Assembly (NCBI GenBank): GCA_051362555.1
Contig: CM120640.1
Span: forward strand, 69,790,788-69,854,787
DNA: 64,000 bases
From: Lingula anatina
Lineage: Eukaryota > Animalia > Brachiopoda
Direction: 5' to 3'
The notes beneath the pieces were generated by a model. The model was not told the DNA's origin. It saw only the letters and a list, made by a program, of their open reading frames with translations, and did not search any database. Positions 15,701 through 64,000 of the stretch are shown here, piece by piece. Position numbers and translations under genes: made by a program. How positions within the stretch are numbered: position 1 is the first letter of the stretch; the number at the start of each line of letters is the position of its first letter.

Positions 15701-18700
15701 TTTAGCATTTCAATTAACAGTTTTTTCCTTTTCTTCCCTCTATTTGTCATTGTATTTTATTCATCGTCTTTTATGACTCTTGGCTTTAATTTTGTCATCA
15801 TACTTTCATGAGAGAGTTTTTATTAACTTATGTATACATTCCTTAACATTAACCCAGCAGGTGTTTGGTTTATGATTGTGTAATATTTGCATTTTTGATA
15901 CTTTGTAATATTGTAATATCCCATTTGATTTTAAGTTGATATAAAAGTTATTTTGCACCCTGTAGCGTATTCCCCACTAATCTTCTGTTTGTTCCAACTT
16001 GAAAAGTAAAATAATCAAATCTAGCATGGCTTTAAAGGTGTGAAATAAAAACTCTTAGATACAGACTGCAATACACTGTATACACAGTTACTAGATATGA
16101 TTCTATTTTTAATTCATTTTTATTTTGATTTAATTTTTATAACTGTTTATAGTGGTTATAGCACACTAAGTAGCTAGCTGTTATGTTTCTAGCCTCCTCC
16201 CCCTGGTCCTGGTGCCCCGCCTACTGACAGTGCTGCTATGGTGACTGTAGGAGATACTAGTGGGCGGGAACCACACAAGACACACCCACAAAGACACTCC
16301 CCTCTGCTTCAGGAGATGCACTATATGTATAAATTTGACAAGGTACATTGATGACTGGTCACTTGTCACATGTCATGTGCTTTTTTATTTCCATTTCCCC
16401 CCACTTAATTTGGATGCATGATATTCAATATGGAGGAGAGTTTTTGGCAAATTCTCTGCCCTTATTTACTGAATTAATATATGAAGTTTTTGAAGTTTCC
16501 TAAAAAGGGAATAGAGACTGTGGTAACATATTCCCTAACAAGAAACTCGTTGTGAACAAAATCTTAAGCACAATATTGCAAGTATATTTTTATTACTTTA
16601 TTTGTTGCAATTATCTTTCTGCTTCTAATTTATCAGCATTCAGTTCAAAGATGTTGTCCATTAAAAAGAGTGACACCATTACTGCCCTTTGTCTTTTAAT
16701 GAGCTTACCAATGTTTACCAGGAAAAACTACTGAAAGACAAGGCCCGTATGCAGCAGAAGCAGAACTCTCCTGACAAGGAGGTAGAAAATGGTGCCAGTG
16801 CCAGCAAGCCTAAGTTGAAGAACAGCGGCCAAAAAGAAGGTTCTCCTGTGAAATCTGAAGTCCAGCAACAGAAAGTGGACAGTAAGAAAGGTAGGGCATT
16901 TTTGATGAAAAAAAGAATTTATAAATATATTTGGCAGAATTATTGGTAATTGATCAGTGTAAATAAATTAATACAAATTTATTAGTTTATTGAAGTGGAA
17001 TGTTTTTTTCCAGGAAAGAGAAAAAATGATGAAGATGATGGCGGATTCCTTGAGGCAGCTTCATCCAGGTCGGAGCGCCGTGTCAGTCCTCAGAGAAGTC
17101 TGGACAACAATGAGGCATTCCTCATCAAAACCCCAGGGTACAATACCCCGGGGCCCAATGGGCTGGAGATCATCTCAGAGTCCGGCTCCAACAGTATTAG
17201 TTACAAATCCCAAGTCCCAGTGAAGTCCGATGCTCCTATCCCAGCTGACAAGTATGCCCGCTACAAGCAGCAAGTGAAGAATGTGATCTTAAACCGGCTG
17301 GAGTTCAGCTCAGATACTGGGTATCTGTACCAGAAACAGAAGACGCGCTATGATGGCAGGAGAGGCACTAGGAGCACCAAGGACTACGACTCTGATACAG
17401 GCTACAGAAGTGACTATGCCCTGTACAGACCCAAGCTCCACCAGCAACAACAACCCAGACCTTTGACAGTGGGCAGCTTTGCCAGTGACTGGGAAATGAG
17501 AGCCAAAATTCAACAGAGTGCCACACAGGAAGGCTACACCAGTGACTCAGAGGGTTTACTACAGAGAGGAAAACTAGATTATGACCACCCCCTGGGTCGA
17601 CCAGGGCAGCTGAAGTACCCTGCCCTAAGCCTACCAGAGAACATGCACAATGCCAACCCAGGGAGCAGTTTTACCATGCAGCAGCAGCAGCAACAGCATC
17701 AACCCTCCCCAGCCTGGAGTTACACCACCACAACCAACATCACCCCCAGCAGTGTGCCGTATGCCAGACGGACCCTGATCCGTAATGATGAGCTGTATGA
17801 CAGCCAGCAGACACCTGGCACAGGTGGGCCGAGGAAGGACACTGACAGTACCCCCACTGTGCTGTCCAGGTCAGCTCATAACCTGTACGGAGACACCGCC
17901 ACCCATCAGACACGTATTGAGGTGAAGCCTAACAAGGATGACTGGAGGACAGAGCTGTTTTCTGTGCTGGAGAGGAAGAGGCAGGAGGCAGCTAGTGGCA
18001 AGAGAGAAGGGCAGCCAGGACCAGGGAAACCACCAGAGCAGGTAGTATATCTGGCTCTTCTTGAATCTGTTGAAGTAATAATATTTTAAAATTTTTTTCA
18101 TGGATGTCAAGTTGTTATGAGAACAACAATATATGAAAATGTCCAAAAATTACTATTGGAAAGTATTTTTATGTGAAGGCACAATGTGTCTGTACATAAA
18201 GTCATTACATGAGTCTGATGTCAACATCAGCATTGCCTTGCACTTTTCACCATTAAATCAATTTTATGGAAAACGTTCTGATTTCATTTTCTTAATGGAG
18301 TGATTTATGAGTCTAAAGTACAGGTCAGGTATAAAAAGAAGTTTTATGGCATTATTTTTGTTGAAGTTATGCAGTTTTTTTGTTGAAGTTTTCATATTTC
18401 TTGTATTGGCATTTAATGTGTATTTATAAAATCTAATGAGCTTGGACCCCAATATTATTTACATTTTCAGAATGTCATTGTTACCTGTCATTATTAAAAA
18501 TTGGCGGTTATTATGCTGTTAATTATTATGTGATATTGCATCAAAATTGCCAAAAGATTTATTAGGCATTAGCATCATTTTCTGCTTTATATGTATGTAC
18601 ATTTGGAAGCTTTGCTATTTTGTATACTACATTATTGAAATATGACAGAAGAGTGCATGATGTTCAGTTTCTTAGCATTTCAAATAATGTCATTTTTCCA

Positions 18701-21700
18701 AGTATTGGAATATTTTCACTTTTCCATCCACTTGGGTCACAACCAGATCTCCATCCTGGTTGATGGTACATCCCCATGGTTTATATAGTCCATCAGCTTG
18801 GGTTGCTATGTACTGGATGAACTTCCCATCTGGGGATACAAGGTGTATGCAGTGGTTATCGCGATCAGTGACCAGTATGTTGTCATAGGCATCAACGCAG
18901 ACACCAGGAGGTGGACTTAACTTATCAGGTCCTGTGTACTGATACAGTGGGTCACCAGATGGGGTTAGGATGTGAAGTTTGTTTGGTGATATATCATTGA
19001 CAACAAGGCACCCATTCCTCACACTAGTGGGCTGGATTTGGTCTTAAAGTGCAATTTAAGTTCACAAGTGATCTTACACGATCTTAAACATTACAGCAGT
19101 AGTCTTAAAATGGACTGAATCTGCTTTTAAGATCAAAAATGATCTAACATCTACTTAAGTGGTCAAGCAGTTTCCTCCCCTCACAATGGGGGATACATCC
19201 CCTCACAATATAGGACACCTCTGCTCAAAATAGGAGAATGTGTAAGGGGAGACAACTTAATTGGCTGTTAGACCAGAAATAGTCTTACTCATGGTTTAAG
19301 ATTATGTAAGACTATTTGTGAACTTAAATTGCACTTTAAGACCAAATCAAGCCCACTAGTGTCATATATGCCACTTGATATGGATTACTGAACAACTGCT
19401 CCCCATCTTTGTCCTTTATCACACCAGTTAAAGTTATTTGCCCTTTTATATCAATACTGATAATGCTCACAGGTTTTTCTTTATAACCCTGTGCCACAGC
19501 AATTTTAGTGCAGCTCTTATTGAGAGCCACACCATATGGGTTGTTGACATCTACAATTTGCTGTACTTCCCACTGTGGTGACAGAATGAACAGTTTGTTA
19601 TTGCCTGAACCAGATAGAACCAACCTTCCATCAGGGAAGTGACAGATCCCTACTGGAAATTTCAGCTGTGTGTCTGAGACACTTGTAATCTCTTGCTTTG
19701 ATGTACCATCTGAACTAAAAACCTTGACCTTGTTATCCCTGTCATGTATAGTAACATATTCCCTGTTTGGACTCACTGAAATGTCCACTGGCCTCTCACA
19801 GCCAGTGTAAAACTCCAGCATACATTCAGCCTTTGGTTTGATCTTGGGCAAAGCTGGTTGTCTAGATATCTGCACATTCCCCAGGCCAGCCCCACTGGAT
19901 ATCTCTTGGTCCACATCTGTGTTGGTGGTGAGTGTGAGTTTTAGTTCCTCTGGAATATCATCCACAGCTGAAGTGGACTGTAGCTCATCTAGTCTCTGTC
20001 CAAGTTGGTGTTGTAACATGAGGACATCTATGGGAGCACCATGCTGAAGTATGTTTTTTAGTACATCTGTTGTGCTTTTGATAGAGGAGCAAGTGGCACT
20101 GCAGTTTTTGCGTGAAATTTGTAAATTATTTCTGTGAGAGCTGGTGGTTTGATGAAGCTCCTGTACTAAGGTTTTCTCTCGTTGATTAACCAGTTGACGT
20201 AGATGATTTGCACGAGCTTTGATCTTCTGCTGAACAAAGCTTTCATTTTCTTGGAGGGTTGCCAATATTTCATCAATCTTAGCTATTGTTTTCTCACCTG
20301 TTTCAAATTTTTTCTCCATGCCACAGAATTTGGTCAGAAGTTTTGGCTTTACCATCTTTGCAGCTTTTTCAAGGGTGATAATTTTGTGACCATCATGGTG
20401 TAGAATTCTGCAGTCACGACAAATGCTGACATTGCAGTCTGAACAAAAGTATCGTATCATCTCACCTTTGTGCTCTGGGCAGATAATCTTTTGCTGCTCT
20501 TGGATTTCTTTTTCATACTCACTGCTGTGAAGTTGTTGAAAAGTCAGCACCTTGTGGTCTTTAGTGAACTTGGTACCACAGTGAAATGGAGAACACTTCT
20601 CACATAGGTAGTCATGGCATGTGATGCATTTTGAAGTAGCCACTGTTTCTGTTTGGGACACCAAAGCACAAGAGCTGCACTTTTTCGTATGTGTTAACTG
20701 AAGTACAGTGTCCTGCAAGCTTTCAATGAAGAAATTGTGAGTGAAGCCCTCAAGGCCATCTTTAGGTACTTCAGTTTCTCTCTGACACACAGGACATGGT
20801 AATTTACTTCCTGGTGTTAAATCAGAAATATAAGTCTTCAGACAACCCTTACAAAATGTATGCCTACATGGTAAATCTGTTGGGTCCTTATACTCCTCAA
20901 GACACAAAGAACAGCTCACAAAGTAGTTGACAATTTCAGTTCTTAAACTTTCTGCTTGTGGACTTTCAGTTACACCCTTGAGGTCTGCAGTAGCCATTTT
21001 CCTTTTTGATTCAGTCTCCAGTTGTTGTCCTGCGCAGATGTCTGTTAGTTCACCTGATTTGACCTAGTTCTTTTCTATAAGTTACCTGTATAGGGATTTG
21101 GGTCAGCATTTTTTCTGACCTTAACTGTGTTCATGTTATTGATTTTACATTAAAACTGCCACTGAACATGATGGGAATTTGTATTTATTATGAAAATATT
21201 TTGTCAAGTTTTTTTGTCCTGTGAATGAAGGAGCTTTAGTATGAAATGCTGGTTAAGCTACAGGTGTTGTTTATATGTTTATGTAGGGAGACAGTCAGAG
21301 GGTGTGTGTGTAGTAAGAGAAGTCAACTATGTTCAGTGATATATTGTGTAAGCACTGGTAAATCTACAGATAGTTTGGAGGTATATGGTGTATTTGTCTT
21401 ATGTAGGGAGACAGTCAGTGTGTGTGTGTGTGTAGTAAGAGAAGTCAACTGTGTTCAGTGATATATTGTATAAGCACTGGTAAATCTACAGATAGTGTGG
21501 AGGTATATGGTGTATGTATACTGTATATGTATATCTCTAAGGTTACTTCTCATATGGGGCAAGATTTTTAGAATTTTATGACAAACATTTCATTTTTCTT
21601 TTTTTTATTTCATTTTTATTTCATTTTTCTTATTTCATTTCTTGTATTTTTACTTCTGAGTATTTCATCATTTCAAAGTCATTTCAATTATCTCCCCTCA

Positions 21701-24700
21701 CACATTCCTCTTTAATTCCTGAAGCCCTAGTTACACACCCTGAATGTCCATGTTACCAGGAGTGCATAATGGATTTTTGATGGTAATTATGCCTTTGAGC
21801 ATTATGTAATATTGCAACAAAATAGTCCCCCCCCCAAAAAAAAAAATATATATTGTTCGATGGCATCATTTTTTTCTGCATTGTGTCTGTACATTTGACA
21901 GCTTTGCTGCTTTGTTTTGTGTTTCCTTTGCACAATTCTCACATAAACCATCATCTGTATTCATTTCTAATCTCCATCTAGGCTCCTCAGGACAGAAGTT
22001 TCAGCACCCACACCAGTGATGACGAGGTGTTTGCCCCTCCCCCCTACAGACCTGCACCCCCTTACTCTCCTAAGTCTGCCAGGAGAGAGCAGACACCTGC
22101 CAGCATGCTGGGGAACAGGTCAGGCAGGGATCTGGTGCCAAGGGACAGCAACTCTAACTCTCCACAGGTGGGATCAGGAGATGGCAGTGGGGTTATCAGC
22201 AACAACAAACGTGGTGGAGGTGGGGTGTATCCTCCAAACTACGGTCCCAGGCCGGACCACAAGCCTAGGATATTCAAACCTGCAGGAGATGGTCAAGAAA
22301 GTGACCAGCGGTCAAGGCAGGTGATCAGGTTGAATGGTCCACCCCCACAGACACTGCCTCACAAGATAGACATGTCCAATCTAAGCAGGACAGGCCTGGT
22401 AGGGGGTGGCCACCAACAGCAGCATAAGATGGACTCTCCTAATCTGAACAGGTCCAGGCCTGATATGAGTGACCCTGTCTCTGCCTCCCTACAGAGGCCT
22501 GGTGCTGGGGCAGCTTATCCACCACATGTACAGCAGAGACTAGGGGGTAATAGGGGGGAACAGAGGCCTCTGGGAAGTACTAGTTCTGATGGCTCAGACA
22601 AAGATAGGACTAGAAGGTTTGTTGATGCTGATGGTGGCATGGCAACAAATAATTTCCAGTCTTCCTCACCAATGAATAGACATAGTACTGAAGTGAGGCC
22701 TGGTGTGGCTTACGGTCCACCACCACCATCATCATCAAGTACTATGCATAATGACTCCTCGGCTAACATGCACAGGGTTAGTGTCTTGAACAGAGCCAGT
22801 CAGAACATGATGGACAGACCATCACCAAATGTACACAACATGAGACTCTCTCCACACCACGACTCCCTCCCACATTCCACGGGACCTCCTTATGAACATG
22901 ATCACCAGAGGGAGCTGGGGTACGACTCTCAGAGCAATCAGAGCTCAGACTTAAGTGCAAAGAACACGTCTCTGGATCATACCAGTGAGAGTGAGCCCCC
23001 TCCCCCGGAGAGTCACCATGAGATTAGGAACTATGAAGATGTGGCCAGGTTTAAGCAACAGCAGCAGCCAGACCCTCTGTCACAAGTGTCCAGTTCTACG
23101 GACAGTGGCTATGGACACGGACATCACATTTATGAGAAGGTTAATGATCTGAGAATGGGAGGTGAGTTGTTACATTTTGGATCTGAAAATTGCTTTTAAG
23201 TACATTGTAACATTGTAACTTACCTTTTATGTATATTAACACAGGTACAGAGAGAGGATCAGAGTGACTTTGAGGTTTACGAAAAAAAAATCTCTCTTTA
23301 ATCATTTAGTCTTAAAAACAACTTAAGGCAGAGCAACAATTAAGTTTGACATTTAAAAGAGAATGTTCCTGTCATCTTCCAGGTTACCCTCCTAGTCACC
23401 TGCCTCCTCCCATGAGAGCCCCACCCTCCCCTCCAGGCCACCCCCAGCCCAGCCCCCTTACTGTCCACCCCCAGCCCAGCCCCCTTACCATCCACTCCCA
23501 TCCACCAGAACACAATCAGCTCCACAGGAACCCTCCAGATATCACCAGCCCTGTGGATGGACCTTATAATGGAATGGACCAAAACTACCCCACAAGGGGA
23601 CAGATTTACCCTGGTGGTCAGTATGACCCTAGGATGACCAATAACCTCAGGGACTTCAAGCCGGCCAGATCTTCCCCAGTAGCTCCTCTAATAAGAAACC
23701 ATCAGCCTCCCTTGCCACCCCAGCAAGGTGCCAGCAGGGGGAATCCGTACCCTGGTCCACCTAAGGAGCCAATCTATGTGTCCAGGAACCAGCTGTTCAG
23801 ACAGCACAATGATGTGGGGCCAGGCAGAGAGAATGGTCTTCCTGACCAGCAGCAGCCACAACAGAACCTGTATCTGGGGCAGAGCAAATATGAAGTGGTG
23901 GGTGCATGGGCTGAGATAGATGGGATCCTACTGTGGTAGAATAAAAAAGATACATGAAACAGATATTTTCATGGTTAATTGTACCACCAGCGTAGGCGCT
24001 GGCGGTACCCATGGTTTTAGTCCCGACCCGTATGTTCCGCCGGCTCCTGCGGCTCCGCGGCAAAGTCACCGTTACCACTTCTCCTCCTAGATGGTAAGGG
24101 CCCCCGTACCCATCTCTTGGATTTAGGTCACCTATAATCTCAACTCGTTCCATGTAAAATTTGGGCTTTGTCGGTATTGGGGTCTAGGTGTGGCACTCAT
24201 TGCAATGCACCCTTGTCTAAAAATGGCAAAATTAAAGGCTAATTATCTACCCTACGGAAGGAGTTATGGGAAAAATTTCTACAGACAGCTTTCCAAAAGT
24301 CATATGTGTAGATTTCAAATATGCCCTTGGATTTGACCTTTGACCTTTATTTCAAGGTCAAACGGGCCAAAATTTTCAAAAAAATGAAATTTTTTACGAA
24401 AAAAATTTTTTTTGCCATGTTATTCAGATACCACACAGACTTAACCAATAATATTATTGGAAAGTGTAACCCTTCGGGTCATCTTTCATCTCCGTGAATT
24501 TGGGGTCAATCGGTGCATTTTCACGGGAGTAGCGGCCATAAAGTACCTAAACTGAAAACTGTCTCTAATTTGGGAACCATTAATGCTAGAGACCCATTCT
24601 TTTTTGCATTTTGTAGAGCATGTAAAGCCCAACACTGGAAGTGGTCTACGTTTTTTTGTATTCCATACGGTTTTCAAGTTACGCTGTATCAAAAAGTACA

Positions 24701-27700
24701 TATTGGTGGTGAAAGCAAAATGTGCAGTACGGTAATGGATAATAAATTTTGAACTCTGGAAAAATAATACATAAGGCTTGGCAAAGCAGACAACTTGTGG
24801 TCAAAAATGACATTATTTCATCAAATTTGAACTTCTGGAACTTCAGAGCACCTCCTATTTTAAGAATTTTGACCAAAATGATGTTTTCTTTATTTTAATT
24901 AATCTTTTCTGTAGGAAATTTATGGCACATTATGGTAACTCCAAAATTATAACATTTAGTCCCTTATATCTCCAAAACTGGCAGAGATAGGTTACTATTG
25001 AAGTTGAATAGGAAGTCACATACTGGCAATCCAAATGTGACCTTGAAATTGACCTTTGACCTACTTTTCACCATGAACTGAACTTTGCAAATTTTGCTTC
25101 TCTTTTATCTCCAAAACTGGCAGAGATATGTCCATAGTTACTATTGAAGTTGAATGGGAAGTCATATACTGGCAATCTAAATGTGACCTTAAAATTGACC
25201 TTTGACCTACTTTTTACCATGAACTGAACTTTGCAAATTTTGCTTCCCTTATATCTCCAAAACTGGCAGAGATAGGTCCATAGTTTCTATTGAACTTGAA
25301 TGGGAAGTCATATACTGGCAATCTATATGTGCCCTTAAAATTGACCTTTGACCTATTTTTCACCATGAACTGAACTTTGCAAATTTTGCTTCCCTTATAT
25401 CTCCAAAACTGGCAGAGATAGGACCATAATTTCTATTGAACTTGAATAGGAAGTCATATACTGGCAATATAAATGTGAACTTAAAATTGACCTTTGACCT
25501 ACTTTTCACCATGAACTGAACTTTGCAAATTTTGCTTCCCTTTTATCTCCAAAACTGGCACAGATTGGTCCATGGTTACTGTTGAACTTGAATAGGAAGT
25601 CATATACTGGCAATCTAAATGTGACCTTAAAATTGACCTTTGACCTACTTTTCACCATGAAATGAACTTTGCAAATATTGCTTCCCTTTTATCTCCAAAA
25701 CTGGCAGAGATAGGTCCATGGTTACTGTTGAACTTGAATAGGAAGTCATATACTGGCAATCTAAATGTGACCTTAAAATTGACCTTTGACCTACTTTTCA
25801 CCATGAACTGAACTGTGCAAATTTTGCTTCCCTTATATCTCCAAAACTGGCAGAGGTAGGTCCATAGTTACTATTGAAGTTGAATGGGAAGTCATATACT
25901 GGCAATCTTACTGTGACCTTGAAATTGACCTTTGACCTACTTTTCACCATGAACTGAATTTTGCAAATTTTGCTTCCCTTTTATCTCTAAAACTGGCAGA
26001 GATAGGTCCATAGTTACTATTGAACTTGAATAGGAAGTCATATACTGGCAATCTAAGTGTGACCTTGAAATTGACCCTTGACCCACTTTTTATCATGAAC
26101 TGAACTCTGCTAATTTCTTTCTCTTTTAACTCCAAACCTGGCAGAGATAGGTCCATAGTTACTATTGAACTTGAATAGGAAGTCATATACTGGCAATCTA
26201 AATGTGACCTTAAAATTGACCTTTGACCTACTTTTCACCATGAACTGAACTTTGCAAATTTTGCTTCCCTTATATCTCCAAAACTGGCAGAGATAGGTCA
26301 ATAGTTACTATTGAACTTGAATAGGAAGTCATATACTGGCAATTTACTGTGACCTTGAAAATGACCTTTCACCTACCTTACAATGAACTTAAATTTGATT
26401 GTACCATTTTTAGTTTCATATATTTTTTGCATATATTGAAAATTCTTGTTGATTGCATGTTTACAGCTTGTCAAGCACAAGACTGGTGGCTGTGTCCCTT
26501 ATTTTGTGTATGTGGGGGTCTATACGAATGCGCTTGCTCCAGCTGGTGGTACAATATTCGGAGGCGGTATCGCCTCTCTGATCCTCTAGTTTTTAAACAC
26601 TATTAATGGATTTGAAGTTATCCTGTGGAGGTGAATTTTTTTTTTCTTAACTGTTATCTTTTGGTTGTAGAGAAATAAACTTTGAACTATATTTTTAAAT
26701 TTTATACCTCTGTATTAGCCATATGTTCTGGTGTGTTACAGCTTCCAGCCACCGTGTTGAAGAATCCAGGTCTAGGGTTCAGTATAGCTGGTGGGAGGGG
26801 ATCCCAGGGCAATCCATACAGACCTGAAGACCAGGTGATACACACAGTCCTCAATTACCTGACTTAACACCATGTATACTCTTAGGCACAATATCCAAAC
26901 AACCAACACCCAATAAATATTTGGGAGAAAATAGAAAAAATTGTCTAATTGTGTGATATTGTATGCTGTTTTACCTATGTTAAGAACTTACATAAACAGT
27001 AACCAAGATTTGCCTAGCTGATGTTGAATGCTGGTTTTGTTCTTTGTTTTCCTTTTTAAATAGGTAAATCTATCTACTACTAGTTTGACGTGCCCTGACA
27101 GCAACCATCATTTTATGTTTTATATTACTTTGATATTGATAATTGACATTGAAAGCCAGTTATTTTCTCTTTTCTTTTTAAACAGGACATGATCTGATCA
27201 CACATATCAGCTAATGCTTCATATGACTTACCTATAAACTTCATTCTGAACTAGCAATATATGAAATATAATTTTCTTTTTCAGGGTGTTTTTGTGACCA
27301 AGGTCCAACCTGAAGGGCCAGCAGCTGCAGAACTACGACCTGGAGACAAAATTTTGGAGGTGGGTTTTAGAACCAGGCACCTGTCGTAGTGTCTTCTAGA
27401 TTAACAATTCAATTCAATTCATTTCTGCACTGGTACATAGATTGTCATTATATTATATTATATTATATTATATTATATTATATTATATTATATTATATTA
27501 ATGAGTAAAATGATAAAGTTTGCTGTGCTGCTGCTGAGTTTTAGTGAAATAAGAGTTGTTTTATTGCATTATGTTTTTAACACGTGTTCTTTGTTTTGAA
27601 GGTCAACGGACAGAACTTTACTCAAGTTGACCACAGTCGTGCAGTGTCCATCTTAAAGAACAGTGGCCAGACTGTGTCCCTGCTGGTGGAGAGAGAAAGA

Positions 27701-29342: not shown

Positions 29343-29348
29343 AATAAA
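29343..29348 (+). promoter_or_regulatory. Candidate polyadenylation signal of the LAP gene (about 1.6 kb 3'UTR)
   Basis: AATAAA followed by a T/GT-rich tract; also present in unit 2 near 53314. Confidence 0.4.
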
Positions 29349-29881
29349 AATATATTTTGATATTGTGTTATTTCATCATTTGTTACAAATGGCCACCATC
29401 AGTCAGCATAAAATGTTTGTAATTTGTTAACAAACCCTGAGATGTTAAAGGTACCCATTATAATATTTCCCCACGAAAGACACGTACTACAAATTTTTCC
29501 TGAGGTTAACCGTATTTTTCATGACTAGTCATCCTTTATCCCCATTTCCTGATTCTCACCATAACTCGTACTGTTACGTAATAACAAATTGGGTGAAATA
29601 TAAATACTTAAAAAAAGACTAAGATATATGTAAATATGGTCACTTTATTGTAATTCTTGTATTGTGGGTCACTGACAAATCCAAAGCTCTAATTAGACTC
29701 AAGAAGTGAAAAGAAGCAAGTAAAAAGTGATTAACATGTTAATGTAGTTTAAAAAAGCATTTTAATATAAGAAACCTAATTTTATGTAATACCTCTCAAG
29801 ATGGGCACATAAAATATTTTATCTCACTTATCAATTTTAAAAGCATACAAACGAAAAACTCAATATAGACAGGTGACACTA

Positions 29882-37641: not shown

Positions 37642-37644
<3 letters not shown>

Positions 37645-37696
<52 letters not shown>
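37645..37696. repeat. (TA)n microsatellite
   Basis: Direct reading. Confidence 0.95.
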
Positions 37697-53736: not shown

Positions 53737-54081
53737 AGATGCATTCCTTCCAAGTCATTTTTTTGCCACAAAAACCGACCAAATGCCAACAAAGTTTCAA
53801 GTAGTATAACTAAGAGAATTACCAAAAGGCTTTGTTTGATTTTACCCGAAAATGTTAGAACGAATTTTTCTGAAAAGTAGGTCACGAAAGTAGGTTAAAT
53901 TTCCAACCAAAAATTTAAAGAAAGGAGCAGTCTAAAGCCCTTTTTATGGCTGATCGAGTGATCTATTCAGTTTATCCCTTGGCATGTCAAATTTATTTGA
54001 GTCGTATAAGAAACTAGTAGAAGTGGTTTACATGTGTTACTGGGAATCCATGCTGCACCGATGCTCGGTTCGTATGTACCT
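53737..54081. mobile_element. 345-bp indel flanked by TTAA, possible Kolobok/piggyBac-type non-autonomous element
   Basis: Absent in unit 1 (gcattttaatataagaaacc, about 29760); ttaa on both sides; AG..CT ends with only weak TIR similarity. Confidence 0.4.
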
Positions 54082-54201
54082 TTAATATGAGAAACCTAAT
54101 TTTATGTAATCCTTCTCCAGATGGGCACATAAAATATTTTATCTCGCTTATCAATTTTAAAAACATACAAACAAAAAACTCAATATAGACAGGTGACACT
54201 A

Positions 54202-55080
54202 CTGGAGATCATCTCAAAGTCCCGCTCCAACAGTAAAAGTTACAAACCCCAAGTCCCAGCGAAGTCCGATGCTCTCGTCCTGGCTGACAAGTACGCCCAC
54301 TACAAGCAGCAAGTGAAGAATGTGTTCTTAAACCAGCTGGAGTTCAGCTCAGATACTGGGTATCTGTACCAGAAGCATAAGATGTGCTATGATGGCAGGA
54401 GAGGCACTAGGAGCACCAAGGACTACGACTCCGGTACAGGCTACAGAAGTGACTATGCCCTGTACAGACCCAAGCTCCACCAGCAACAACAACCCAGACC
54501 TTTGACGGTAGGCAACTTAGCCAGCGACTGGGAAATGAGAGCCAAAATTCAACAAAGTGACACACAGGAAGGCTATACCAGTGACTCAGAAGGTTTACTA
54601 CAGAGAGGAAAACTGGATTATGACCACCCCCTGGGTCGCCCAGGGCAGCTGAAGTACCCCGCCCTAAGCCTACCAGAGAACATGCACAATGCCAACCCAG
54701 GGAGCAGTTTTACCATGCAGCAGCAGCAGCAGCAGCATCAACCCTCCCCAGCCTGGAGTTACACCACCACAACCAACATCACCCCCAGCAGTGTGCCATA
54801 TGCCAGACGGACTCTGATCCGTAATGATGAGCTGTATGACAGCCAGCAGACACCTGGCACAGGTGGGCCGAGGAAGGACACTGACAGTACCCCCACTGTG
54901 CTGTCCAGGTCAGCTCATAGCCTGTATGGATACACAGCCACCCATCAGACACGCATTGAGGTGAAGCCTAACAAGGATGACTGGAGGACAGAGCTGTTTA
55001 CTGTGCTGGAGAGGAAGAGGCAGGAGGCAGCGAGTGCCAAGAGTGAAGGACAGCCAGGACCAGGGAAACCACCAGAGCAG
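54202..55080 (+). pseudogene. 5'-truncated LAP exon 16 copy, unit 3 (frame still open, donor intact)
   Basis: ORF 54193..55095 matches exon 16 from LEIIS onward; donor cag|gtacta at 55081. Confidence 0.75.
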
Positions 55081-56269
55081 GTACTATATCTGTAGTGATA
55101 ATAAAAATTTCATTTTTTTTCATGGATGTCAAGCTGTTATAAGATTGACAATGTAACTCCTACTTTTTCTGGTAAAATTTTCCATAAAAATATCCAAAAA
55201 TTACTATTGGAAAGTATTTTTATGTGAAGGCACAATGTGTCTGTACATAAAGTCATTACATGAGTCTGTTGTCAACATCAGCACTGCCTTGCACTATTCA
55301 CCATAAAGTCAATTTTATGGAAAATGGTGTGATTTATTTTTCTCAAATGTAGTGGAGTGATTAATGGCTCTAAAGTAGAGGTCAGGTGTAAATATATTTT
55401 TTTTGTATTATTTTTGTTGAAGTTATGCAATTTTTTGTTAAAGTTTCATTTTTCATGTATTAGCATTTGATGTGTATTTATGAAATCTTATGAGCCTAGA
55501 CCCCCAATAATAATGAATGTCATTATTACCTGTTATTATTATAGTCTAGTGAGATTTTTGAAAAAAGGCTCTGCATAAGAGGCAAGGGGCATTTTGGGGT
55601 AGAAGTTGGGAACCAGGCTTATTAGCATAATTTTGGGATGCTGAATCCGATTTACCCGGTTCCCAAGCGAAATTTTGCGTTTTTAACGGTTTAATTTGCA
55701 AAAAAACAAAATGGCCGCCAGATTTCCTATTTTCTGCAATACCTCTGGAACTAGACAGGCAAATATGACAAATGAAGTGTCTTTACCTATATTTTTAGGG
55801 TCGAGGAACATTATTAAGATGTTTCTGTTAGAATTAGATTTACGCAATTTTCCTAAATATGCAAATTAGGATCGCCATTACTGAAAAACCGTTTTACTTC
55901 TGTATCTCTGTAACTAGGCAAGCAAACATGACAAATGAAGTGTCTACACCTATGTTCTCAGGGTCAGGGAATGTGATAAATCAGATTTCTTGTCTGATGG
56001 GTAGCACTGACTTTGTGAATCGTGTCCGAGTAGCACCTTTTATTGTTTCTTCCCTGTATCTGTCAAACACAAGTCAATCTGCTGATAGTTAGAACCTGCC
56101 TTCAGAACTGCTCTTACGTACGTGTCAGCCAAACTACCAAAGGTCACTGCACAGGCTTTCCCCAGTGAAATTGTCAGTGCTTGCCCATCAATTATAAGGC
56201 AAGGTGAGCAGAGGCGGATCCAGGATTATTTGAAGGGGGAGTCCGCGGATGCAAAGCCCCCCCCCCCCC

Positions 56270-56319
<50 letters not shown>

Positions 56320-56631
56320 GCAACGGGTTAGGGGCCTGTTGAAGGGCCACACAAAATTTTGGTATTTAAGAGGGCGAACGGTGCCATTTGGTATGGTTTA
56401 CAACTATGATTCAGCTAGTCAAAATTATAATTTCAAGGGGGGACCATAATTCGAAGGGGAGGGGGGGGTCAGGGCCCGCCTTACGTAATATGTGGCAGTT
56501 TCTCTGAGCAGTCCTCTTTGGCTGGTTACAGAATGCGTATAAAAGGGCAGCAGTTCTGCAGAATAATGCTCTATATTTCGACAACGTCCAGTCAGAAGAG
56601 TTTGATATTTTGCAGACTCTTAGCTGACCAT

Positions 56632-57575
56632 ACGGTATGTGAACTAACGGCAGCAACTTGCCACACTATTGTTGCATTATGCCAGAATGGACAGAAGCAA
56701 ACTGCTATTGCCAGACAGCTGAATGTGTCCCAGGGAGCAGTTTCTAACGTCTTACAGAAACACGCCCAGACTGGTGCATTAACACAGAGACCACGGCCAG
56801 GATGTCCTAAAGTCACCACCAGAAGGGAAGACCGCTTGCTTCTGGGGTTATGTCGCAACAACCGGACAAAGACAACTCTTGCTGTACAAAATGAGTGGCA
56901 AATTAGCATGTTTCTAGGCTACTTTTAGCTGGTTAACTCTATGAACAGAGCAACATGGTGGGCTAGACGCCATTTGCGGTTCCAGGCACAGCACTGGGTT
57001 CATGTAGATTTTTTCAGATGAGGCAGGGTTTGAGTTCCACCACCGCGATGGCTGAATCAGAGTCAGTAGGTTTCCAGACGAGTTACTGCACGAGGATTGT
57101 GTCACACTACAGTGACTTGTGGCCGTGGCAGTATCTGTGTATGGGCCGGTTTCCACTCTGGAGCCAAAACACTGTTGGTGGCAATTGACGGAAACCTCAA
57201 CCAGATAAAATATAGGGACATTTTAGAGAATACTTGCTTGCAATTTGCAAGAAGGTACTTCCAGGACAACTTCGTCCTGCAAGATGACAATGCCCGACCA
57301 CACCATGCCCATGCAATAACTGCTTTTCTGCAAAACCAAGAGGTAAACCAGTTGCCTTGGCCGACGAAATTCCCCTGACATGAATTTTATAGAAAACCTG
57401 TGGGCATAAATCGCTAGCAGAATCAAGAGCTTACCCGTCCACCCTACAAATCGGCACAAGCTTAGGCAAGCTCTGACTAATGCGTGTAACACAATACTGG
57501 ATCATACTCTCAGAAACCTCTCTGCAATAAATGAGGGCTCTGGTTGCAGCTAGAAGAGGCTGCACGCGTTGTTAT
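56632..57575 (+). pseudogene. Tc1-family (DD34E) transposase pseudogene
   Basis: HTH IARQLNVSQGAVSNVL..RPGCPKVTTRREDR; FSDE; VWAGF; QDDNARPH..WP..DMNFIENLW with 34 residues between D and E after correcting a frameshift; stops, frameshifts and an internal deletion. Confidence 0.85.
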
Positions 57576-58195
57576 CAGTTTCCATTTTTCACATTTGTAT
57601 TGATGATTCTTTTGTGTGAGAGAAAATCCTTACCAACTGATATTCTTGATAATATCGAGTTCATAAGAATGTAATACCTCGTTATCAGCTATAAAATTAT
57701 CCATGCGCTGTTTATAACGCTGATTTGAATATTAAATTATTATTTAAATTAAATTTTTGATGATGTATTCACACAGGTTGATTTATTAAAGCCATATCGA
57801 ACACGATAACAAGTGTTTTTTCATCCATTACTAATATATGGGAAAAATTCAAAGAAAATATGTTTGAAAAAAATCCATTTTAAATGTGAAGTCTGTACAT
57901 TGCATCACATGAATTATTTGATTCAGCAAATCCCTCCATTGCATTAATAAGGTAATCTTTTTTAAATCTAGGTAAAAGTGGCAGTTGTGTGATCCAATAT
58001 GTTTACATCCCAATGGCAGCGCAGTATTTAATTGCAAAATTCAATTCAGATTCGAATAATTGCTACAGTGTGACAGTGTAGCCCTCATTGCTGATTTGAT
58101 TATAGTGAAAATGTCTTAATCACTTTCCCTAACGCTGAAAACATGGGTGTGGGCACTTCATATGTCATGTTTGCTTGCCTAGTTAACGTAAAAGC

Positions 58196-58338
58196 GGGGC
58201 CGTAGCGATAGTCCAAAGGTTCAATAGTCCGAAGGTTCATTGGTCCGAATGTTCACTATAGAACCTTCGGACCAATGAACCGATGAAAACGTTACCACTT
58301 TTCGGACCAATGAACCTTCGGACTATCGAGACGCCCCC
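58196..58338. mobile_element. Foldback MITE with 9-bp TSD (Mutator-like)
   Basis: TIRs ggggccgtagcgatagtcc / ggactatcgagacgccccc; internal ggttca.t.gtccgaa units; TSD cgtaaaagc (58187-58195 / 58339-58347). Confidence 0.7.
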
Positions 58339-59102
58339 CGTAAAAGCAGTTCTGAAGGCAGGTTCTAACTATCAGCAGATTGACTTGTGTTTGACAGATA
58401 CAGGAAAGAAACAATAAAAGATGCTACTCGGACACGATTCACAAAGTCAGTGCTACCCATAAGACAAGACATCTGATTTACCACATTCCCTGACCCTGAG
58501 AACATAGGTGTAGACACTTCATTTGTCATGTTTGCTTGCCTAGTTACAGAGATACAGAAGTAAAACGGTTTTTTCAGTAATGGCGATCCTAATTTGCATA
58601 TTTAGGAAAATTGCGTAAATCTAATTCTAACAGAAACATTTTAATAATGTTCCTCGACCCTGAAAATATAGGTAAAGACACTTCATTTATCATGTTCACC
58701 TGTCTAGTCCCAGAGATATTGCAGAAAATAGGAAATCTGGCGGCCATTTTGTTTTTTTGAAAATTAGACAGTTAAAAACGCAAAATTTCGCTTGGGAACC
58801 GGGTAAATCGGATTCAGCATCCCAAAATTATGCTAATAAGCCTGGTTCCCAACTTTTACCCCAAAATGCCCCTACTATTCATCTTTTGTGGAAATCCCAC
58901 TAGACTATTAAAATTTGTTTGTGATCATGCTGTAAATTATTATGTAATATTGCATCAAAAATGCCAAAAAATATATTATGCATTAGCAGACTTTCTGCTT
59001 TGTATATGTACATTTGGAAGCTTTACCATTTTGTATACTACATTATTTGAAAAAATGACAGAAGAGTGCATAATGTTCAGTTTCTAAGCATTTTAAAATA
59101 TG

Positions 59103-61058
59103 TCATTTTTCTAAGTATTGGAATACTTTCACTTTTCCATCCACTTGGGTCACAACCAGATCTTCATCCTGGTTGATGGTACATGCCCATGGTTCATATA
59201 GTCCATCAGCTTTGGATGCTATGTACTGGATGAACTTCCCATCTGGGGATACAAGGTGTATGCAGTGGTTATCATAGTCTGTTGCCAGTATGTTGTCATA
59301 TGCATCAACACAGACACCAAAGGGTCGATTTAACTTGTTATCAGGTCCTGTGTACTGATACCATTGTTCACCAGATGGGGTTAGGATATGAAGTTTGTTT
59401 TGTGATAAATCACAAACAACAAGGCACCCATTGCTTGTATATGCCACTTTATATGGATTATTGAACAACTGTTCCCCATCTTTGTCCTTTATCACATCAG
59501 TTAAAGTTAGTTTGCCATTGATAGCAATACTGAACACACTCACAGACTTTTCTTTATTATGTTGTGCCACAGCAATCTTAGTGCAGATGTTATTGAGAGC
59601 CACACCATATGGGTTGTTGACATCTACAGTTTCCTGTACTTCCCACTGTGGTGATAGGATGAACAGTTTGTTATTACCTGCACCAGATAGAACCATCCTT
59701 CCATCACCGAAGTGACAGATCCCTATTGGACCTTTTAGCTCTGTGTCTGAAACACTTGTTATCTCCTTGCTAAATGTACCTTCTGAACAAAAAACCTTGA
59801 CCTTGTTATCCCAGTCATGTGCAGTAACGTACTCCCTGTTTGGACTCACTGAAATGTCCACTGGTCTCCGACAGCCAGTGTCAAACTCCAGCATACATTC
59901 AGCCTGTGGTTTGATCTTGGGCAAAGCTTGTGATTTAGATATCTGCACATTCCCCAGGCCGGCCCCACTGGATATCTCTTGGTCCACTTCTTTGTTGGTG
60001 GTGAGTGTAAGTTTTAGTTCCTCTGGAATATCATCCACAGCTGAAGTGGATTGTAGATCATCAAGTCTGTGTCCAAGTTGGTGTTGTAACATGAGGACAT
60101 CTATGGGAGCACCATGCTGAAGGATGTTCTTTACTACATCTGTTGTGGTTTTGATAGAGGAGCAAGTGACACTGCAATTTTTGCGGGAAATTTGTAAAAT
60201 ATTTCTGTGAGTACTGGTGGTTTGATGAAGCTCCTGCAGTAAGGTTTTCTCTCGTTGATCTACCAGTTGACGTAGATGAACTGCACGAGCTTTAATCTTC
60301 TGCTGAACAAAGCTTTCATTTTCTTGGAGGGTTGCCAATATTTCATCAATTTTAGCTATTGTTTTCTCTCCCTTTTCAATTTTTTTCTCCATGCCACAGG
60401 ATTTGGTCAGAAGTTGTGGCTTTACCATCTCTGCAGCTTTTTCAAGGGAGATAAGTTTGTGACCATCATGGAGTAGATCTCTGCAGTCACGACAAATGGG
60501 GACACTGCAGTCTGAACAAAAGTATCGTATCATCTCACCTTTGTGCTCTGGGCAGATAATCTGCTGCTGCTCATGGATTTCTTTTTGATACTCACTGCTG
60601 TGAAGTTGTTGAAAAGTTAGTACCCTGTGATTTTTAGTGAGTGTGGTAGCACAGTGGAATGGAGAACATTTGTCACATAGGTAGTCATGACAGGTGATAC
60701 ATTTTGAAGTTGCCACTGTTTCAGTTTGGGACAATAAATCACAAGAGCTGCACTTTTTCTTATGTGTTGACTGAAGTACAGTCTCCTGCAAGCTTTCAAT
60801 GAAGAAATTGTGAGTGAAGCCCTCGAGGCCATCTTTAGGAACTTCAGTCTCTTTCTGACACACAGGACATCGGAATTTACTTCCTGGTGTTAAGTCAGAT
60901 ACATAAGTCGTCAGACAACCTTTACAAAATGTATGCCTACATGGTAAATCTGTTGGATCCTTATACTCCACAAGACATAATGGACAGCTGACAAAATATT
61001 CAATTATTTTGGCTCGTAGGCTTTCTTCTCCATCTCTGTCAATGTGAGCTGTAGCCAT
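59103..61058 (-). CDS. TRIM-NHL E3 ubiquitin ligase copy 3, 651 aa, single coding exon
   Basis: Uninterrupted ORF, same architecture with all Zn ligands retained; distinct N-terminus MATAHIDRDGEE. Confidence 0.92.
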   Translation of the reverse strand: MATAHIDRDGEESLRAKIIEYFVSCPLCLVEYKDPTDLPCRHTFCKGCLTTYVSDLTPGSKFRCPVCQKETEVPKDGLEGFTHNFFIESLQETVLQSTHKKKCSSCDLLSQTETVATSKCITCHDYLCDKCSPFHCATTLTKNHRVLTFQQLHSSEYQKEIHEQQQIICPEHKGEMIRYFCSDCSVPICRDCRDLLHDGHKLISLEKAAEMVKPQLLTKSCGMEKKIEKGEKTIAKIDEILATLQENESFVQQKIKARAVHLRQLVDQREKTLLQELHQTTSTHRNILQISRKNCSVTCSSIKTTTDVVKNILQHGAPIDVLMLQHQLGHRLDDLQSTSAVDDIPEELKLTLTTNKEVDQEISSGAGLGNVQISKSQALPKIKPQAECMLEFDTGCRRPVDISVSPNREYVTAHDWDNKVKVFCSEGTFSKEITSVSDTELKGPIGICHFGDGRMVLSGAGNNKLFILSPQWEVQETVDVNNPYGVALNNICTKIAVAQHNKEKSVSVFSIAINGKLTLTDVIKDKDGEQLFNNPYKVAYTSNGCLVVCDLSQNKLHILTPSGEQWYQYTGPDNKLNRPFGVCVDAYDNILATDYDNHCIHLVSPDGKFIQYIASKADGLYEPWACTINQDEDLVVTQVDGKVKVFQYLEK

Positions 61059-61894
61059 TTACGTGGCATGTAGTGAACTGTTCTATGTGGATCTCTTTTC
61101 AGCAGTAAACCAGTTGGGGAGAATGTGTGTTCAGTAGAGTTATAACTGTTATCTTATCAGTCACCCACTTTTTCCTTGTCTAAAGTCTCAGCAGTTTGTT
61201 TTTGCATTTCACTATGCATTATGTATCAAGAATGTGTTCAGTTTATTTTTCACCAGTGAAGATGTTAGGCTCTGGAGTAGGTAGTCAGTTCAGGTAGATG
61301 AATTCAGTGAGAGCTGTAACTACAGTGTAGATATCTTGCAGTGAAGACACAGGTGCTCTTTGCTCTTTTTCTTGTGGAGTCTCCACTTGGGTTGTAAATG
61401 CGACTCCTGCCATCTCTAGGTGCGCAGGAAGTACGCCTAAAATGATCTGAATCTACAATTTCAGATCACAATTAAATGATCTAATATAGCCTTAATTTTG
61501 TAAAATTATCTTCCCTTGGTTGAGAAAGACAATAATTAGACTGACTTCCAGTTAAGTGCATGGTCAAGCAATTTTCATCCCTCACACATCCCCCCCCATA
61601 TTTCCTGAAGCCTGAAACCCTAGTTGCATATTCTGAATGTCCATGTTACCAGTATTTTTAGTGTGTATGAAATGATCTGTATTACACAATAAAATTTTGG
61701 TGGTTATTATGCTGTTGTGTATTATCTAAAATTGCATCAAAATAGAACAAAACAAAACAAAACAAAACAAAAAACATTGTTCACTAGCATAATTATTTTC
61801 TGCATTGTGTCTGTACATTTGAAGGCTTTGCTGCCTTGTTTTGTGTTTCTCACATAAACCATCATCTGTGTATTCATTTCTAATCCCCATCCAG

Positions 61895-63600
61895 GCCCCT
61901 CAGGACAGAAGTTTCAGCACCCACACCAGTGATGACGAGGTATTTGCCCCTCCCCCCTACAGACCTGCACCCCCTTACTCTCCTAAGTCTGCCAGGAGAG
62001 AGCAGACACCTGCCAGCATGCTGGGGAACAGGTCAGGCAGGGATCTGGTGCCAAGGGACAGCAACTCTAACTCTCCACAGGTGGGATCAGGAGATGGCAG
62101 TGGGGTTATCAGCAACAACAAACGTGGTGGAGGTGGGGTGTATCCTCCAAACTACGGACCACAAGCCTAGGATATTCAAACCTGCAGGAGATGGTCAAGA
62201 GAGTGACCAGCGGTCAAGGCAGGTGATCAGGTTGAATGGTCCACCCCCACAGACACTGCCTCACAAGATAGACATGTCCATCAGGTTGAATGGTCCACCC
62301 CCACAGACACTGCCTCACAAGATAGACATGTCCAATCTAAGCAGGACAGGCCTGGTAGGGGGTGGCCACCAACAGCAGCATAAGATGGACTCTCCTAATC
62401 TGAACAGGTCCAGGCCTGATATGAGTGACCCTGTCTCTGCCTCCCTACAGAGGCCTGGTGCTGGGGCAGCTTATCCACCACATGTACAGCAGAGACTAGG
62501 GGGGAATAGGGGGGAACAGAGGCCTCTGGGAAGTACTAGTTCTGATGGCTCAGACAAAGATGGGACTAGAAGGTTTGTTGATGCTGATGGTGGCATGGCA
62601 ACAAATAATTTCCAGTCTTCCTCACCAATGAATAGACATAGTACTGAAGTGAGGCCTGGTGTGGCTTACGGTCCACCACCACCATCATCATCAAGTACTA
62701 TGCATAATGACTCCTCGGCTAACATGCACAGGGTTAGTGTCTTGAACAGAGCCAGTCAGAACATGATGGACAGACCATCACCAAATGTGCACAGCATGAG
62801 ACTCTCTCCACACCACGACTCCCTCCCACATTCCACGGGACCCTGGAACGGTGTGACTGAAATGCGCAATACACCGCAATACAGCGCAACACAGTGCAAT
62901 ACACTTCAAAAAATCAAATCCAGTTGCAATTACACAAAAGAAATGACCGTTCCCAGCAAAGTAGGGTGATATAAAAACAACCTATATTACTAGGTAAGTA
63001 ATATCGTTGAAATAACTTAACAAATCAGCAAGACTTTTATATTGTCGTGTTGGCAGCCATGTTGGCGAGTGGCTCTTCTTGGATATATTACTGGCCAAGA
63101 AGAGCTTTTCGCCAACATGGCGGCTGACCAAACAGTGAAAAAATTGTCAAGTTGTATCAGCAATATTAATTACTATGTACTATATTTTGCTTTTATATCA
63201 CCCTATTTTATTTGAGATTACCCTTTCCTGTGTTTACTTGCAACTGGACTTGTGTTATCAAGTGTATTGCGCTGTGTTGCGCTGTATTGCAGTGTATTGC
63301 GCATTTCAGTCACACCCCCGGGACCTCCTTATGAACATGATCACCAGAGGGAGCTGGGGTACGACTCTCAGAGCAATCAGAGCTCAGACTTAAGTGCAAA
63401 GAACACGTCTCTGGATCATACCAGTGAGAGTGAGCCCCCTCCCCCAGAGAGTCACCATGAGATTAGGAACTATGAAGATGTGGCTAGGTTTAAGCAACAG
63501 CAGCAGCCAGACCCTCTGTCACAAGTGTCCAGTTCTACGGACAGTGGCTATGGACACGGACATCACATTTATGAGAAGGTTAATGATCTGAGAATGGGAG
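61895..63600 (+). pseudogene. LAP exon 17 copy, unit 3, disabled
   Basis: 11-bp deletion near 62157 (cgg microhomology), 54-bp tandem duplication 62226-62333, MITE insertion 62843-63318. Confidence 0.88.
62843..63318. mobile_element. MITE-like insertion in the unit 3 exon 17 copy
   Basis: TIRs ggtgtgactgaaatgcgcaatacac / gtgtattgcgcatttcagtcacacc with 10-bp subrepeats; cgggacc duplicated on both sides; absent from units 1 and 2. Confidence 0.75.
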
Positions 63601-63679
63601 GTGAGTTGTTACATTTTGGATCTGAAAAATTGCTTTTAAGTACATTGTAGCATTGTAACTTACCTTTTATGTATATTAA

Positions 63680-64000
63680 AGCTACTCTTACAACCGGTCG
63701 TGCGTGCTTCTACGAGCGGTTTGCGTGCAAAAAATTGGCCAAGTAGTAAGATACACGCACGTGGAGCGTACTATTTTTGGTAGACGCAAACACGACGCAA
63801 AGCACGCAGCCCGAAAACTGGCCGGCCAGTTTTTCGCTACGACCTGTCTGCGACAATTAGAATGCCTGGAGCACGCTCGTAGCACGCAAGACAAAAGTAC
63901 TGAGTAAGTGCGCTAGGCGTGCGTGTAACGCAGGAAAAGCATGCAGAAATTACGGGGTTTTTTACCACGAAGACGTACTTACCACGCAAGAGACTCGTAA
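63680..64000. mobile_element. Start of a further insertion (possibly PIF/Harbinger-like), truncated by the window end
   Basis: Homology to intron 17 stops after gtatattaa; CpG-rich sequence beginning agctactcttacaac follows; other end not visible. Confidence 0.45.

Follow-up and report, generated by a model that had tools for sequence, protein, structure and literature searches.

Three head-to-tail units, each carrying the 3' half of an LRR+PDZ gene or part of it, with an antisense TRIM-NHL gene in intron 16, lie in the window, the 64-kb stretch of Lingula anatina DNA analysed here. Two of these 3'-half copies stand downstream of the complete host gene. On balance, we lean towards reading the array as a copy-number-variable tandem module whose duplication is likely old. 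In this module, dead host exons would be overwritten repeatedly from working host alleles, via gene conversion or unequal crossover, and so be refreshed; TRIM-bearing introns would escape overwriting and stay distinct, retaining three different predicted binding faces. If so, the locus offers a small natural example of an essential gene whose dead half-copies seem to be replenished by its living alleles; thus replenished, they would sustain recombination in the array, and the nested cargo would diversify alongside.

Anatomy of the array

Self-BLAST bore out the arrangement proposed in a first-pass annotation of this DNA: three head-to-tail units, each with host exon 16 onward and one antisense RING/B-box/coiled-coil/NHL gene in host intron 16 (Table 1). 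The array contains at least three units, as the window boundary falls within U3. The breakpoint lies within exon 16 and outside the TRIM-bearing intron, as annotated: it falls 150 bp inside coding exon 16 (17014-18041), with the intron ~0.9 kb further downstream. The junction reads identically at 29881/29882 and 54201/54202, and the 121 bp preceding it differ between the two occurrences at 7 sites (5.8%). A complete gene, partial gene copies and one common junction together make up a tandem module of the RCCX type.

Table 1. Features of the array and their positions in the window
Feature	Position	Strand	Remarks
Host gene, LRR+PDZ (LAP)	6737..27721	+	21 coding exons, 1627 aa, intact
Unit 1 (U1)	17163..29881	+	exon 16 breakpoint to ~2.2 kb beyond host stop
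Unit 2 (U2)	29882..54201	+	broken host exons 16-21, TRIM2, large repeat insertions
Unit 3 (U3)	54202..64000	+	host exons 16-17, TRIM3; continues past window end
TRIM1	18690..20997	-	interrupted in window; intact RefSeq allele XP_013412103 (98.9% aa)
TRIM2	41150..43120	-	656 aa, RING-BB1-BB2-CC-NHL, one coding exon
TRIM3	59103..61058	-	651 aa; dispersed-paralog-type N-terminus, different 5' flank
Non-autonomous TIR element, 340 bp	19022..19361		ends CACTA...TAGTG, 3-bp TSD TCA
Degenerate HINE-like element, 3' side of TRIM1	18166..18623	+	worn 5' end; internal 3' end 7/33 mismatches
Outer HINE-like 3' end, 5' side of TRIM1	21727..21916	+	1/33 mismatches
Relic of TRIM3-type 5' flank in U2	44076..44548		66-75% to 61220-61653; absent from U1
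Junction-proximal U3 exon-16 copy, neutral-looking decay	54202..54401	+	pN 0.09 vs 0.008 elsewhere in copy
Element, 3.3 kb, U3 intron 16	55585..58873		535-bp TIRs (96%), decayed HTH/paired-type transposase
TIR insertion, ~470 bp, in U3 exon-17 copy	62843..63315		self-comparison of units

The host gene, of cell-polarity type and presumably erbin/densin-like, is complete once. Its 21 exons form a complete ORF in U1, with GT-AG at 20/20 introns, and the protein is 98.7% identical to XP_013412095 (Lingula anatina LOC106174883). The copies in U2 and U3 are broken by the kinds of lesion that the annotation had listed (frameshifts, a stop, deletions and insertions). In U2, the exon 16 copy carries a +1 frameshift and lacks its 3' part, the exon 17 copy a -1 change, and the exon 18 copy a TAG and a -11 change; intron 16 holds ~10 kb of repeats and intron 20 a 3.8-kb element. 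In U3, the exon 17 copy carries a -11 change, a 54-bp duplication and a TIR insertion.

Tandem adjacency is taken from the assembly, with no junction-bridging contig or read among those listed. This, together with a published Lingula heterozygosity of 1.6% (given in the accessible text of PMC4595640), would accommodate an assembly artefact of falsely joined haplotigs, an outcome that the annotation itself had raised. Such an artefact is very improbable, as it would require one locus in three versions, with the same junction twice and its flanks diverged as above. DNA run X1, which may be the source sample of the assembly, also contains all three types together: U1-type contigs at depth 63-141 and separate U2- and U3-specific contigs at depth 16-46, with 0 differences from U2-specific sequence over 1419 bp. 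One X1 contig, 17777-18044, was considered as pooled U1 and U3 sequence and proved to be the U1 allele, from which U3 differs at 10 sites; for this reason, no copy numbers were derived by adding up X1 depths.

Substitutions in the duplicated host exons

The host copies differ from U1 by 39 synonymous and 25 non-synonymous substitutions in U2 (pN/pS 0.19) and by 30 and 26 in U3 (pN/pS 0.25). Neutrality is rejected in each case (p 6e-11 and 4e-7, respectively), and the half-neutral expectation, a pN/pS of 0.55, also exceeds the observed values (p 2e-5 and 2e-3). Variants of the copies recur in working alleles of other animals. In the duplicated part, 6 of the 16 substitutions between RefSeq host and window host are also present in U2/U3. 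RNA run X14 carries the U2 letter at 8 sites within 45183-45260 (3/3 reads) and a sense letter at the position of U2's stop (19/19 reads); RNA run X20 carries U2 letters at 45442 (16/16 reads) and 45475 (9/9 reads). The base missing at 44806 is restored in 0/5 X20 reads, an observation that is unexplained.

Because the differences are mostly synonymous and common to working alleles, the host copies were probably refreshed by exchange instead of being left to decay. Identity between U1 and U3 is also patchy: exon 17 differs by 0.8%, the 5' part of exon 16 by 6.8%, and the intron-16 flanks by 10-16%. Patchy identity, low pN/pS and shared variants are the pattern left by exchange between modules or alleles, a pattern that fits conversion as well as allele capture and does not separate the two. 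These data support the earlier proposal that host exons act as a recombination scaffold.

The first-pass annotation had also held that host copies simply decayed and passengers stayed intact. A model of neutral decay since duplication accounts for the frameshifts, stop and insertions of the copies and for the open frames of TRIM2 and TRIM3, but it is improbable: the pN/pS values reject neutral decay, the TRIM copies have diverged more than the supposedly decaying exons (dS 0.18-0.26, 2-3 times host pS), and TRIM1 is itself broken by the 340-bp insertion.

Neutral-looking decay is limited to ~200 bp adjoining the unit-3 junction. On this side of U3, pN is 0.064-0.103 against ~0.01 elsewhere (three cut-offs, p<=4e-7), a signal made up of 11-15 substitutions and obtained with cut-offs picked once the list had been seen; the corresponding U2 signal is weak (p 0.01-0.12). 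Six changes next to the junction are common to U2 and U3. The decay beside the U3 junction and these common changes suggest that the junction is old.

The age of the junction bears on an unlikely alternative, in which a single intronic TRIM had long-standing allelic lineages, TRIM1-TRIM3 (T1-T3), owing to balancing selection or cryptic-species introgression, and unequal crossover joined their divergent haplotypes in tandem fairly recently. Capture of such alleles would account for the low pN/pS and allele sharing of the host copies without later conversion. It would also agree with DNA run X3, which differs by ~3% in exon 16 and carries U2/U3 letters at 17408 and 17516; X3 contigs of >=90% were found at neither 18274 nor 18444, and this run may therefore have a different type of intron 16. 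Against recent capture stand the old-looking junction, the T1 allele of RefSeq, and the T1-type contigs in DNA runs X4 and X5.

TRIM genes, paralogs and flanking repeats

TRIM2 and TRIM3 are open and keep all RING, B-box1 and B-box2 ligands, as annotated. The RING, with eight Zn ligands, scores above cut-off for Pfam zf-C3HC4, and its ligand pattern is present in T1-T3. B-box1, B-box2 and a coiled coil follow in order (PF00643 and ligand patterns; helix 209-340 in an AlphaFold model). In the model, the T2 C-terminus forms a six-bladed NHL propeller of 24 strands (pLDDT 85-96), with best fold matches to the NHL domains of the C-VII proteins TRIM2/TRIM3 (E 4.5e-22). The T3 propeller is assigned via its 84% identity to T2. 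In T1, the 340-bp element splits blade 4 of the propeller at the residue equivalent to T2 545; we take this element to be CACTA-type, and it is multi-copy in 4/4 DNA runs examined. No Pfam match to a filamin domain was found before the NHL, where the model has a short linker.

By domain architecture, T1-T3 are assigned to the TRIM-NHL ubiquitin ligase type, with ligase activity predicted. They share the RING, two B-boxes, coiled coil and six-bladed NHL of TRIM-NHL (C-VII) TRIM2/3/32/71 and of TRIM56, as described in the accessible text of PMC9634614, and differ in having no detected filamin domain and one coding exon. They are not orthologous to any single human TRIM.

Omega among the TRIM copies is 0.34-0.42 overall, 0.16-0.30 in the RING/B-boxes and 0.53-0.58 in the NHL. 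The RING/B-box value, which would have helped to refute the annotation's view had it been near 1, is well below 1 and indicates purifying selection, with the reservation that omega <1 records past selection only. Variation across the family is concentrated on the predicted binding face of the propeller. Of the 30 family columns that vary most, the top loops (75 positions, strands from the AlphaFold model) account for 21 and the bottom loops for 0, with 3.6 expected. Local dN/dS in these model-defined loops is ~0.65-0.9, not >1, and the top-versus-bottom contrast is significant in one of three TRIM pairs; a motif-defined loop set, chosen with the alignment in view, gives 1.0-2.0 against gene-wide dS. 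The top opening is the NHL binding site of TRIM-NHL ligases in the accessible text of PMC9634614; unlike those, the Lingula top loops are variable, not conserved, and carry no net positive charge.

Selection may favour a diverse target-recognition repertoire, here of ubiquitin ligases whose ligand face varies and whose role would most likely be in defence, and the loss of TRIM1 would be tolerated because TRIM2, TRIM3 and dispersed paralogs cover for it. The recognition domain of finTRIMs and TRIM5, which belong to expanded antiviral TRIM clusters, is the B30.2/SPRY domain. That of the Lingula proteins is an NHL, and their immune function is putative; the likeness, as far as PMC2657112 (finTRIM) and PMC6677749 (TRIM5) are accessible, lies in lineage-specific amplification and a diversifying C-terminal recognition domain.

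Twelve TRIM paralogs (74-86% identity), among them XP_013390084, XP_013394822 and XP_013396780, sit on 12 other RefSeq scaffolds. Most TRIM amplification has therefore taken place outside the array, contrary to the first-pass annotation. No RefSeq proteins above 86% to T2 or T3 were found, and the best non-Lingula matches of the family reach 20-29% identity, consistent with a Lingula-specific and apparently undescribed brachiopod TRIM-NHL expansion. Full-text literature searches on array and TRIM themes returned no paper on this locus or family, and term look-ups in the main texts of the Lingula genome papers PMC4595640 and PMC13121700, whose supplements may list the family, found no TRIM-gene passage. 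With its variable ligand face, the expansion is a candidate defence repertoire.

One whole-protein FastTree groups T1-T3 as a clade (SH 0.87), although they are mosaic with the paralogs (PHI-type p<0.0005). A first tree placed RefSeq P0009 among the array copies; a second omitted this partial sequence. The strong recombination signal raises the alternative of a young duplication, followed by ectopic conversion between common HINE ends in which dispersed paralogs replaced the TRIM2 and TRIM3 sequences. The T3 N-terminus is indeed closer to dispersed paralogs (82-86%) than to T1/T2 (73%), residues 1-75 of T1/T2 group with P0003/P0050 (support 1.0), and the T3 5' flank is merely 66-75% identical to its U2 relic. 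As an account of the whole genes this is decidedly doubtful: the T1-T3 clade has four private common residues, just 17/54, 19/51 and 30/68 copy-specific residues are found in 8 tested full-length dispersed paralogs, and host-specific intron edges have diverged too. Such replacement probably holds for the TRIM 5' end only.

The TRIM gene sits between a worn internal HINE-like 3' end and a near-perfect outer one, and the outer end recurs at 44655 in U2 (1 mismatch) and 61808 in U3 (2 mismatches). The 5' end is worn, with its motif found at 55220 and a 62% alignment at 18166. Members of the repeat family combine a hairpin and subterminal IR at the 5' end with a 3' subTIR and palindrome; they also contain a microsatellite and central repeats of 159-161 bp, and their flanks are T-rich. 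HINE-type ends, hairpin, central repeats and T-rich sites are features of Helentrons/HINEs in the accessible text of PMC4067079, where end-bypass or composite capture is proposed, not demonstrated. The TRIM gene may first have entered the intron as composite HINE/Helentron cargo. A bolder reading, which we put forward only tentatively, extends this to the family as a transposon-borne set of TRIM-NHL receptors with variable faces. The whole gene would have been brought by a composite HINE/Helentron to at least a dozen loci, and the LAP locus would be a long-polymorphic defence locus of cassette exchange, where conversion-freshened host exons serve as recombination arms and intron-16 cassettes are gained, lost or swapped with the host unharmed.

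Variation among individuals and comparable loci

Units 2-3 appear to be absent from some individuals. In DNA runs X4 and X5, contigs span 17163 without a break or a change in depth, and no trace of units 2-3 was found in these contigs, which drop rare variants, or in RefSeq. No loose contig end at 17163 occurs among the matches listed in any run. One-unit haplotypes could be regenerated through crossover in near-identical exons. Separately, an unexplained ~six-fold increase in X3 depth begins upstream of the breakpoint, near 16600.

No T2-specific RNA support and no TRIM 5' exon were found in 6-25% of each of three RNA runs, which is not evidence of silence. On TRIM2, reads are nearly absent from RNA runs X14 and X17, and those of X20 differ from it at the listed sites. 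The RNA reads are mostly 95-99% alike and therefore probably come from other populations. In a search of runs with the T2 region, no RNA run was listed as a match; the word shares of 0.14-0.43 are uninformative, since T1/T3 alone share 0.16 of T2's 31-mers.

By analogy, the architecture of the array has a textbook precedent in human RCCX (STK19-C4-CYP21-TNX), a multiallelic tandem CNV with mono-, bi- and trimodular haplotypes. In the accessible text of PMC3595039, complete genes likewise lie between partial flanking genes, unequal crossover and gene conversion reshape the module, and the intact cargo is an immune gene, as the Lingula cargo may be. The Lingula array differs in comprising one half-duplicated host gene with its cargo antisense within an intron, in cargo copies ~15% apart in protein, and in that conversion appears to renew a dead scaffold from working alleles. 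An opsin/TEX28 array was considered as a further precedent and set aside, as the accessible text of PMC9646815 shows no partial copies. Presence-absence variation in Mytilus, as described in the accessible text of PMC7653742, similarly involves dispensable, hemizygous genes from expanded families of young age; the dispensable Lingula genes differ in being carried by a defined tandem module that lies within a conserved gene.

Three units and the fate of the host copies

Self-BLAST of the window resolves three direct repeat units (U1-U3; table), confirming the head-to-tail arrangement described in the first-pass annotation. Each unit holds one antisense RING/B-box/coiled-coil/NHL gene (T1-T3) in host intron 16. 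At both unit junctions, codon 676 of host exon 16 is preceded by the same 3'-flank sequence, with 7 differing sites in the 121 bp before the breakpoint. This shared flank fits a junction that formed one time and was then copied.

The host model joins 21 coding exons, all through canonical splice sites, into a 1627-aa protein, 98.7% identical to the Lingula anatina LRR+PDZ protein LOC106174883; spliced transcripts are found in all three RNA runs. The disabling lesions reported for the duplicated host exons are present in the U2 and U3 copies, but the simple neutral decay proposed for them is not borne out. Relative to the working host, U2 differs at 39/557 synonymous and 25/1891 non-synonymous sites (pN/pS 0.19), and U3 at 30/457 and 26/1591 (pN/pS 0.25), rejecting both neutral and half-neutral histories. 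The copies also share variants with working alleles: of the 16 substitutions separating the RefSeq and window hosts in the duplicated part, 6 recur in U2/U3, and at many positions in exon 17 RNA reads of other animals match U2. The U2 stop codon and two private U2 replacements are absent from the reads of these animals. A neutral appearance is limited to the first 140-300 bp past the U3 junction (pN 0.06-0.10 vs 0.01), using cut-offs picked after inspection and with a weak U2 signal.

Divergence is 0.8% between U3 exon 17 and U1 and 1.4-4.7% across U2 introns 17-20 and the 3' flank, whereas intron 16 differs by 10-16% between units and TRIM dS is 0.18-0.26. This is most simply explained by an old duplication in which working alleles would have overwritten the host-derived sequence, sparing the junction-adjacent stretch and intron 16. 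The main rival to overwriting is the capture of divergent alleles into the tandem.

Separately, the 146-bp-repeat elements of U1 and U2 belong to one family. Neither insertion site is occupied in the other unit, so they arose either independently or by a local hop.

Coordinates of features in the array region (window positions)
Feature	Position	Remark
U1	17163-29881
U2	29882-54201
U3	54202 to beyond 64000	clipped by window end
Working host gene (+)	6737-27721	ends within U1
Duplicated exon-4 acceptor and exon start	9636-9677	just 5' of true exon 4; in-frame stop; possible decoy splice site
Intron 16	18042-21981
Segment between HINE-like ends	18166-21916	~95% of intron 16
122-bp tandem duplication upstream of T1	21272-21515	single in U2; surrounding flank multi-copy in DNA runs X3 and X5
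146-bp-repeat element, U1 intron 18	23981-26587	9.9 copies
146-bp-repeat element, U2 intron 20	47723-51495	20.3 copies; truncated
21-bp tandem duplication	30362-30405	at U2 deletion edge
Nested HINE-like elements, both orientations	30700-40800	~10 kb, replacing U2 exon 16/intron 16 boundary
Same HINE-like family	3675-5650
Remnant of the CACTA-type element that interrupts T1, T2 5' flank	44330-44498	worn, 82%
Remnant of the CACTA-type element that interrupts T1, T3 5' flank	61440-61570	more degraded
Unrelated GC-rich sequence	63680-64000	from U3 intron 17 past window end; probably another insertion

Occurrence in sequencing runs

In DNA run X1, contigs match U2-specific sequence with 0 differences over 343, 268 and 808 bp (depth 16-46), one at 17438-17606 shows 11 differences, equal to the U3 allele count (depth 45), and U1-type contigs reach depth 63-141; contig depth does not give copy number, and X1 is possibly the source sample. 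The presence of all three versions in one sample argues against falsely joined haplotigs. Single contigs span the breakpoint at flat depth in X4 and X5 (15300-18380; 15992-18756). In X3 one contig also crosses it (17000-17992). Protein searches found no RefSeq protein >86% identical to T2 or T3, and no junction-bridging record is among the matches listed. Given the breakpoint-crossing contigs and the protein searches, the array is probably a presence-absence variant.

TRIM copies within a dispersed family

T2 and T3 retain open frames and every Zn ligand, as first described. The passengers were said to stay intact, but T1, the copy in the working host, is interrupted here: a 340-bp element sits in it, ending in CACTA motifs and flanked by a duplicated TCA target. 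Since the RefSeq allele XP_013412103 is intact and 98.9% identical, this insertion is young or polymorphic; that accession adjoins the host's, and its scaffold equals the host's in size.

Omega is well below 1 in the RING/B-boxes (0.16-0.30); values for the coiled coil are 0.33-0.40, and those for the NHL domain 0.53-0.58. T2 is modelled as a six-bladed NHL propeller, nearest to TRIM2/3 structures. The b-c and d-a loops are presumed, by convention, to lie on the propeller top. With loops defined from the strands of this model, mean column entropy across 14 proteins is 1.01 for top versus 0.28 for bottom loops (p 6e-6), and the top loops contain 21/30 of the most variable columns. Human NHL domains bind through the top opening (PMC9634614). 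As local top-loop dN/dS is ~0.65-0.9, diversifying selection there is at most suggested.

T1-T3 are 83-86% identical pairwise. Twelve paralogs on 12 other RefSeq scaffolds (some possibly linked, the assembly being fragmented) are 74-86% identical to them, the nearest being about as distant as T1-T3 are from one another; TRIM-region contig depth is roughly 8-40x that of single-copy flank in X1, X4 and X5. The array is a minor part of a dispersed family. TRIM-family reads in RNA run X20 carry non-T2 letters. The family is mosaic (PHI-type statistic 0.275 vs 0.432; 0/2000 permutations; 11 full-length rows): T1 and T2 have the N-terminus type of RefSeq proteins P0003/P0050, and T3 has the commoner type and a different 5' flank. 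A whole-protein tree places T1-T3 together when partial P0008-P0010 and P0012 are excluded.

Two more Lingula TRIM-NHL subfamilies (P0013-P0022, ~40% identity) are probably tandem clusters, because several members lie on scaffolds of common lengths (176327, 214114, 324545); P0011 and P0021 form a third (50-55%).

Proposed route into intron 16 and comparison with RCCX

Nearly all of intron 16 is a segment enclosed by the ends of a repeat family that resembles HINEs in anatomy; the 5' end is worn, the 3' end near-perfect. A degenerate internal 3' end of the HINE-like family lies immediately beyond the TRIM stop. Minus this segment the intron would be ~190 bp; 12/19 other host introns measure 123-476 bp. 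End-bypass or composite capture is proposed for HINEs in PMC4067079, and the layout of a TRIM between HINE-type ends matches that model. By such capture the TRIM may have been carried into intron 16, which would account for the dispersal of its paralogs.

The array architecture has a precedent in human RCCX (PMC3595039), where an intact gene is flanked by partial ones, unequal crossover alters copy number and conversion homogenises; the Lingula module is alike in working, with an intact gene amid partial copies. Different from RCCX are a cargo that is nested and antisense, ~15% diverged and variable on its predicted ligand face; a host scaffold that, on the simplest account, is refreshed; loss of the cargo copy in the working host (T1); and probable transposon carriage.
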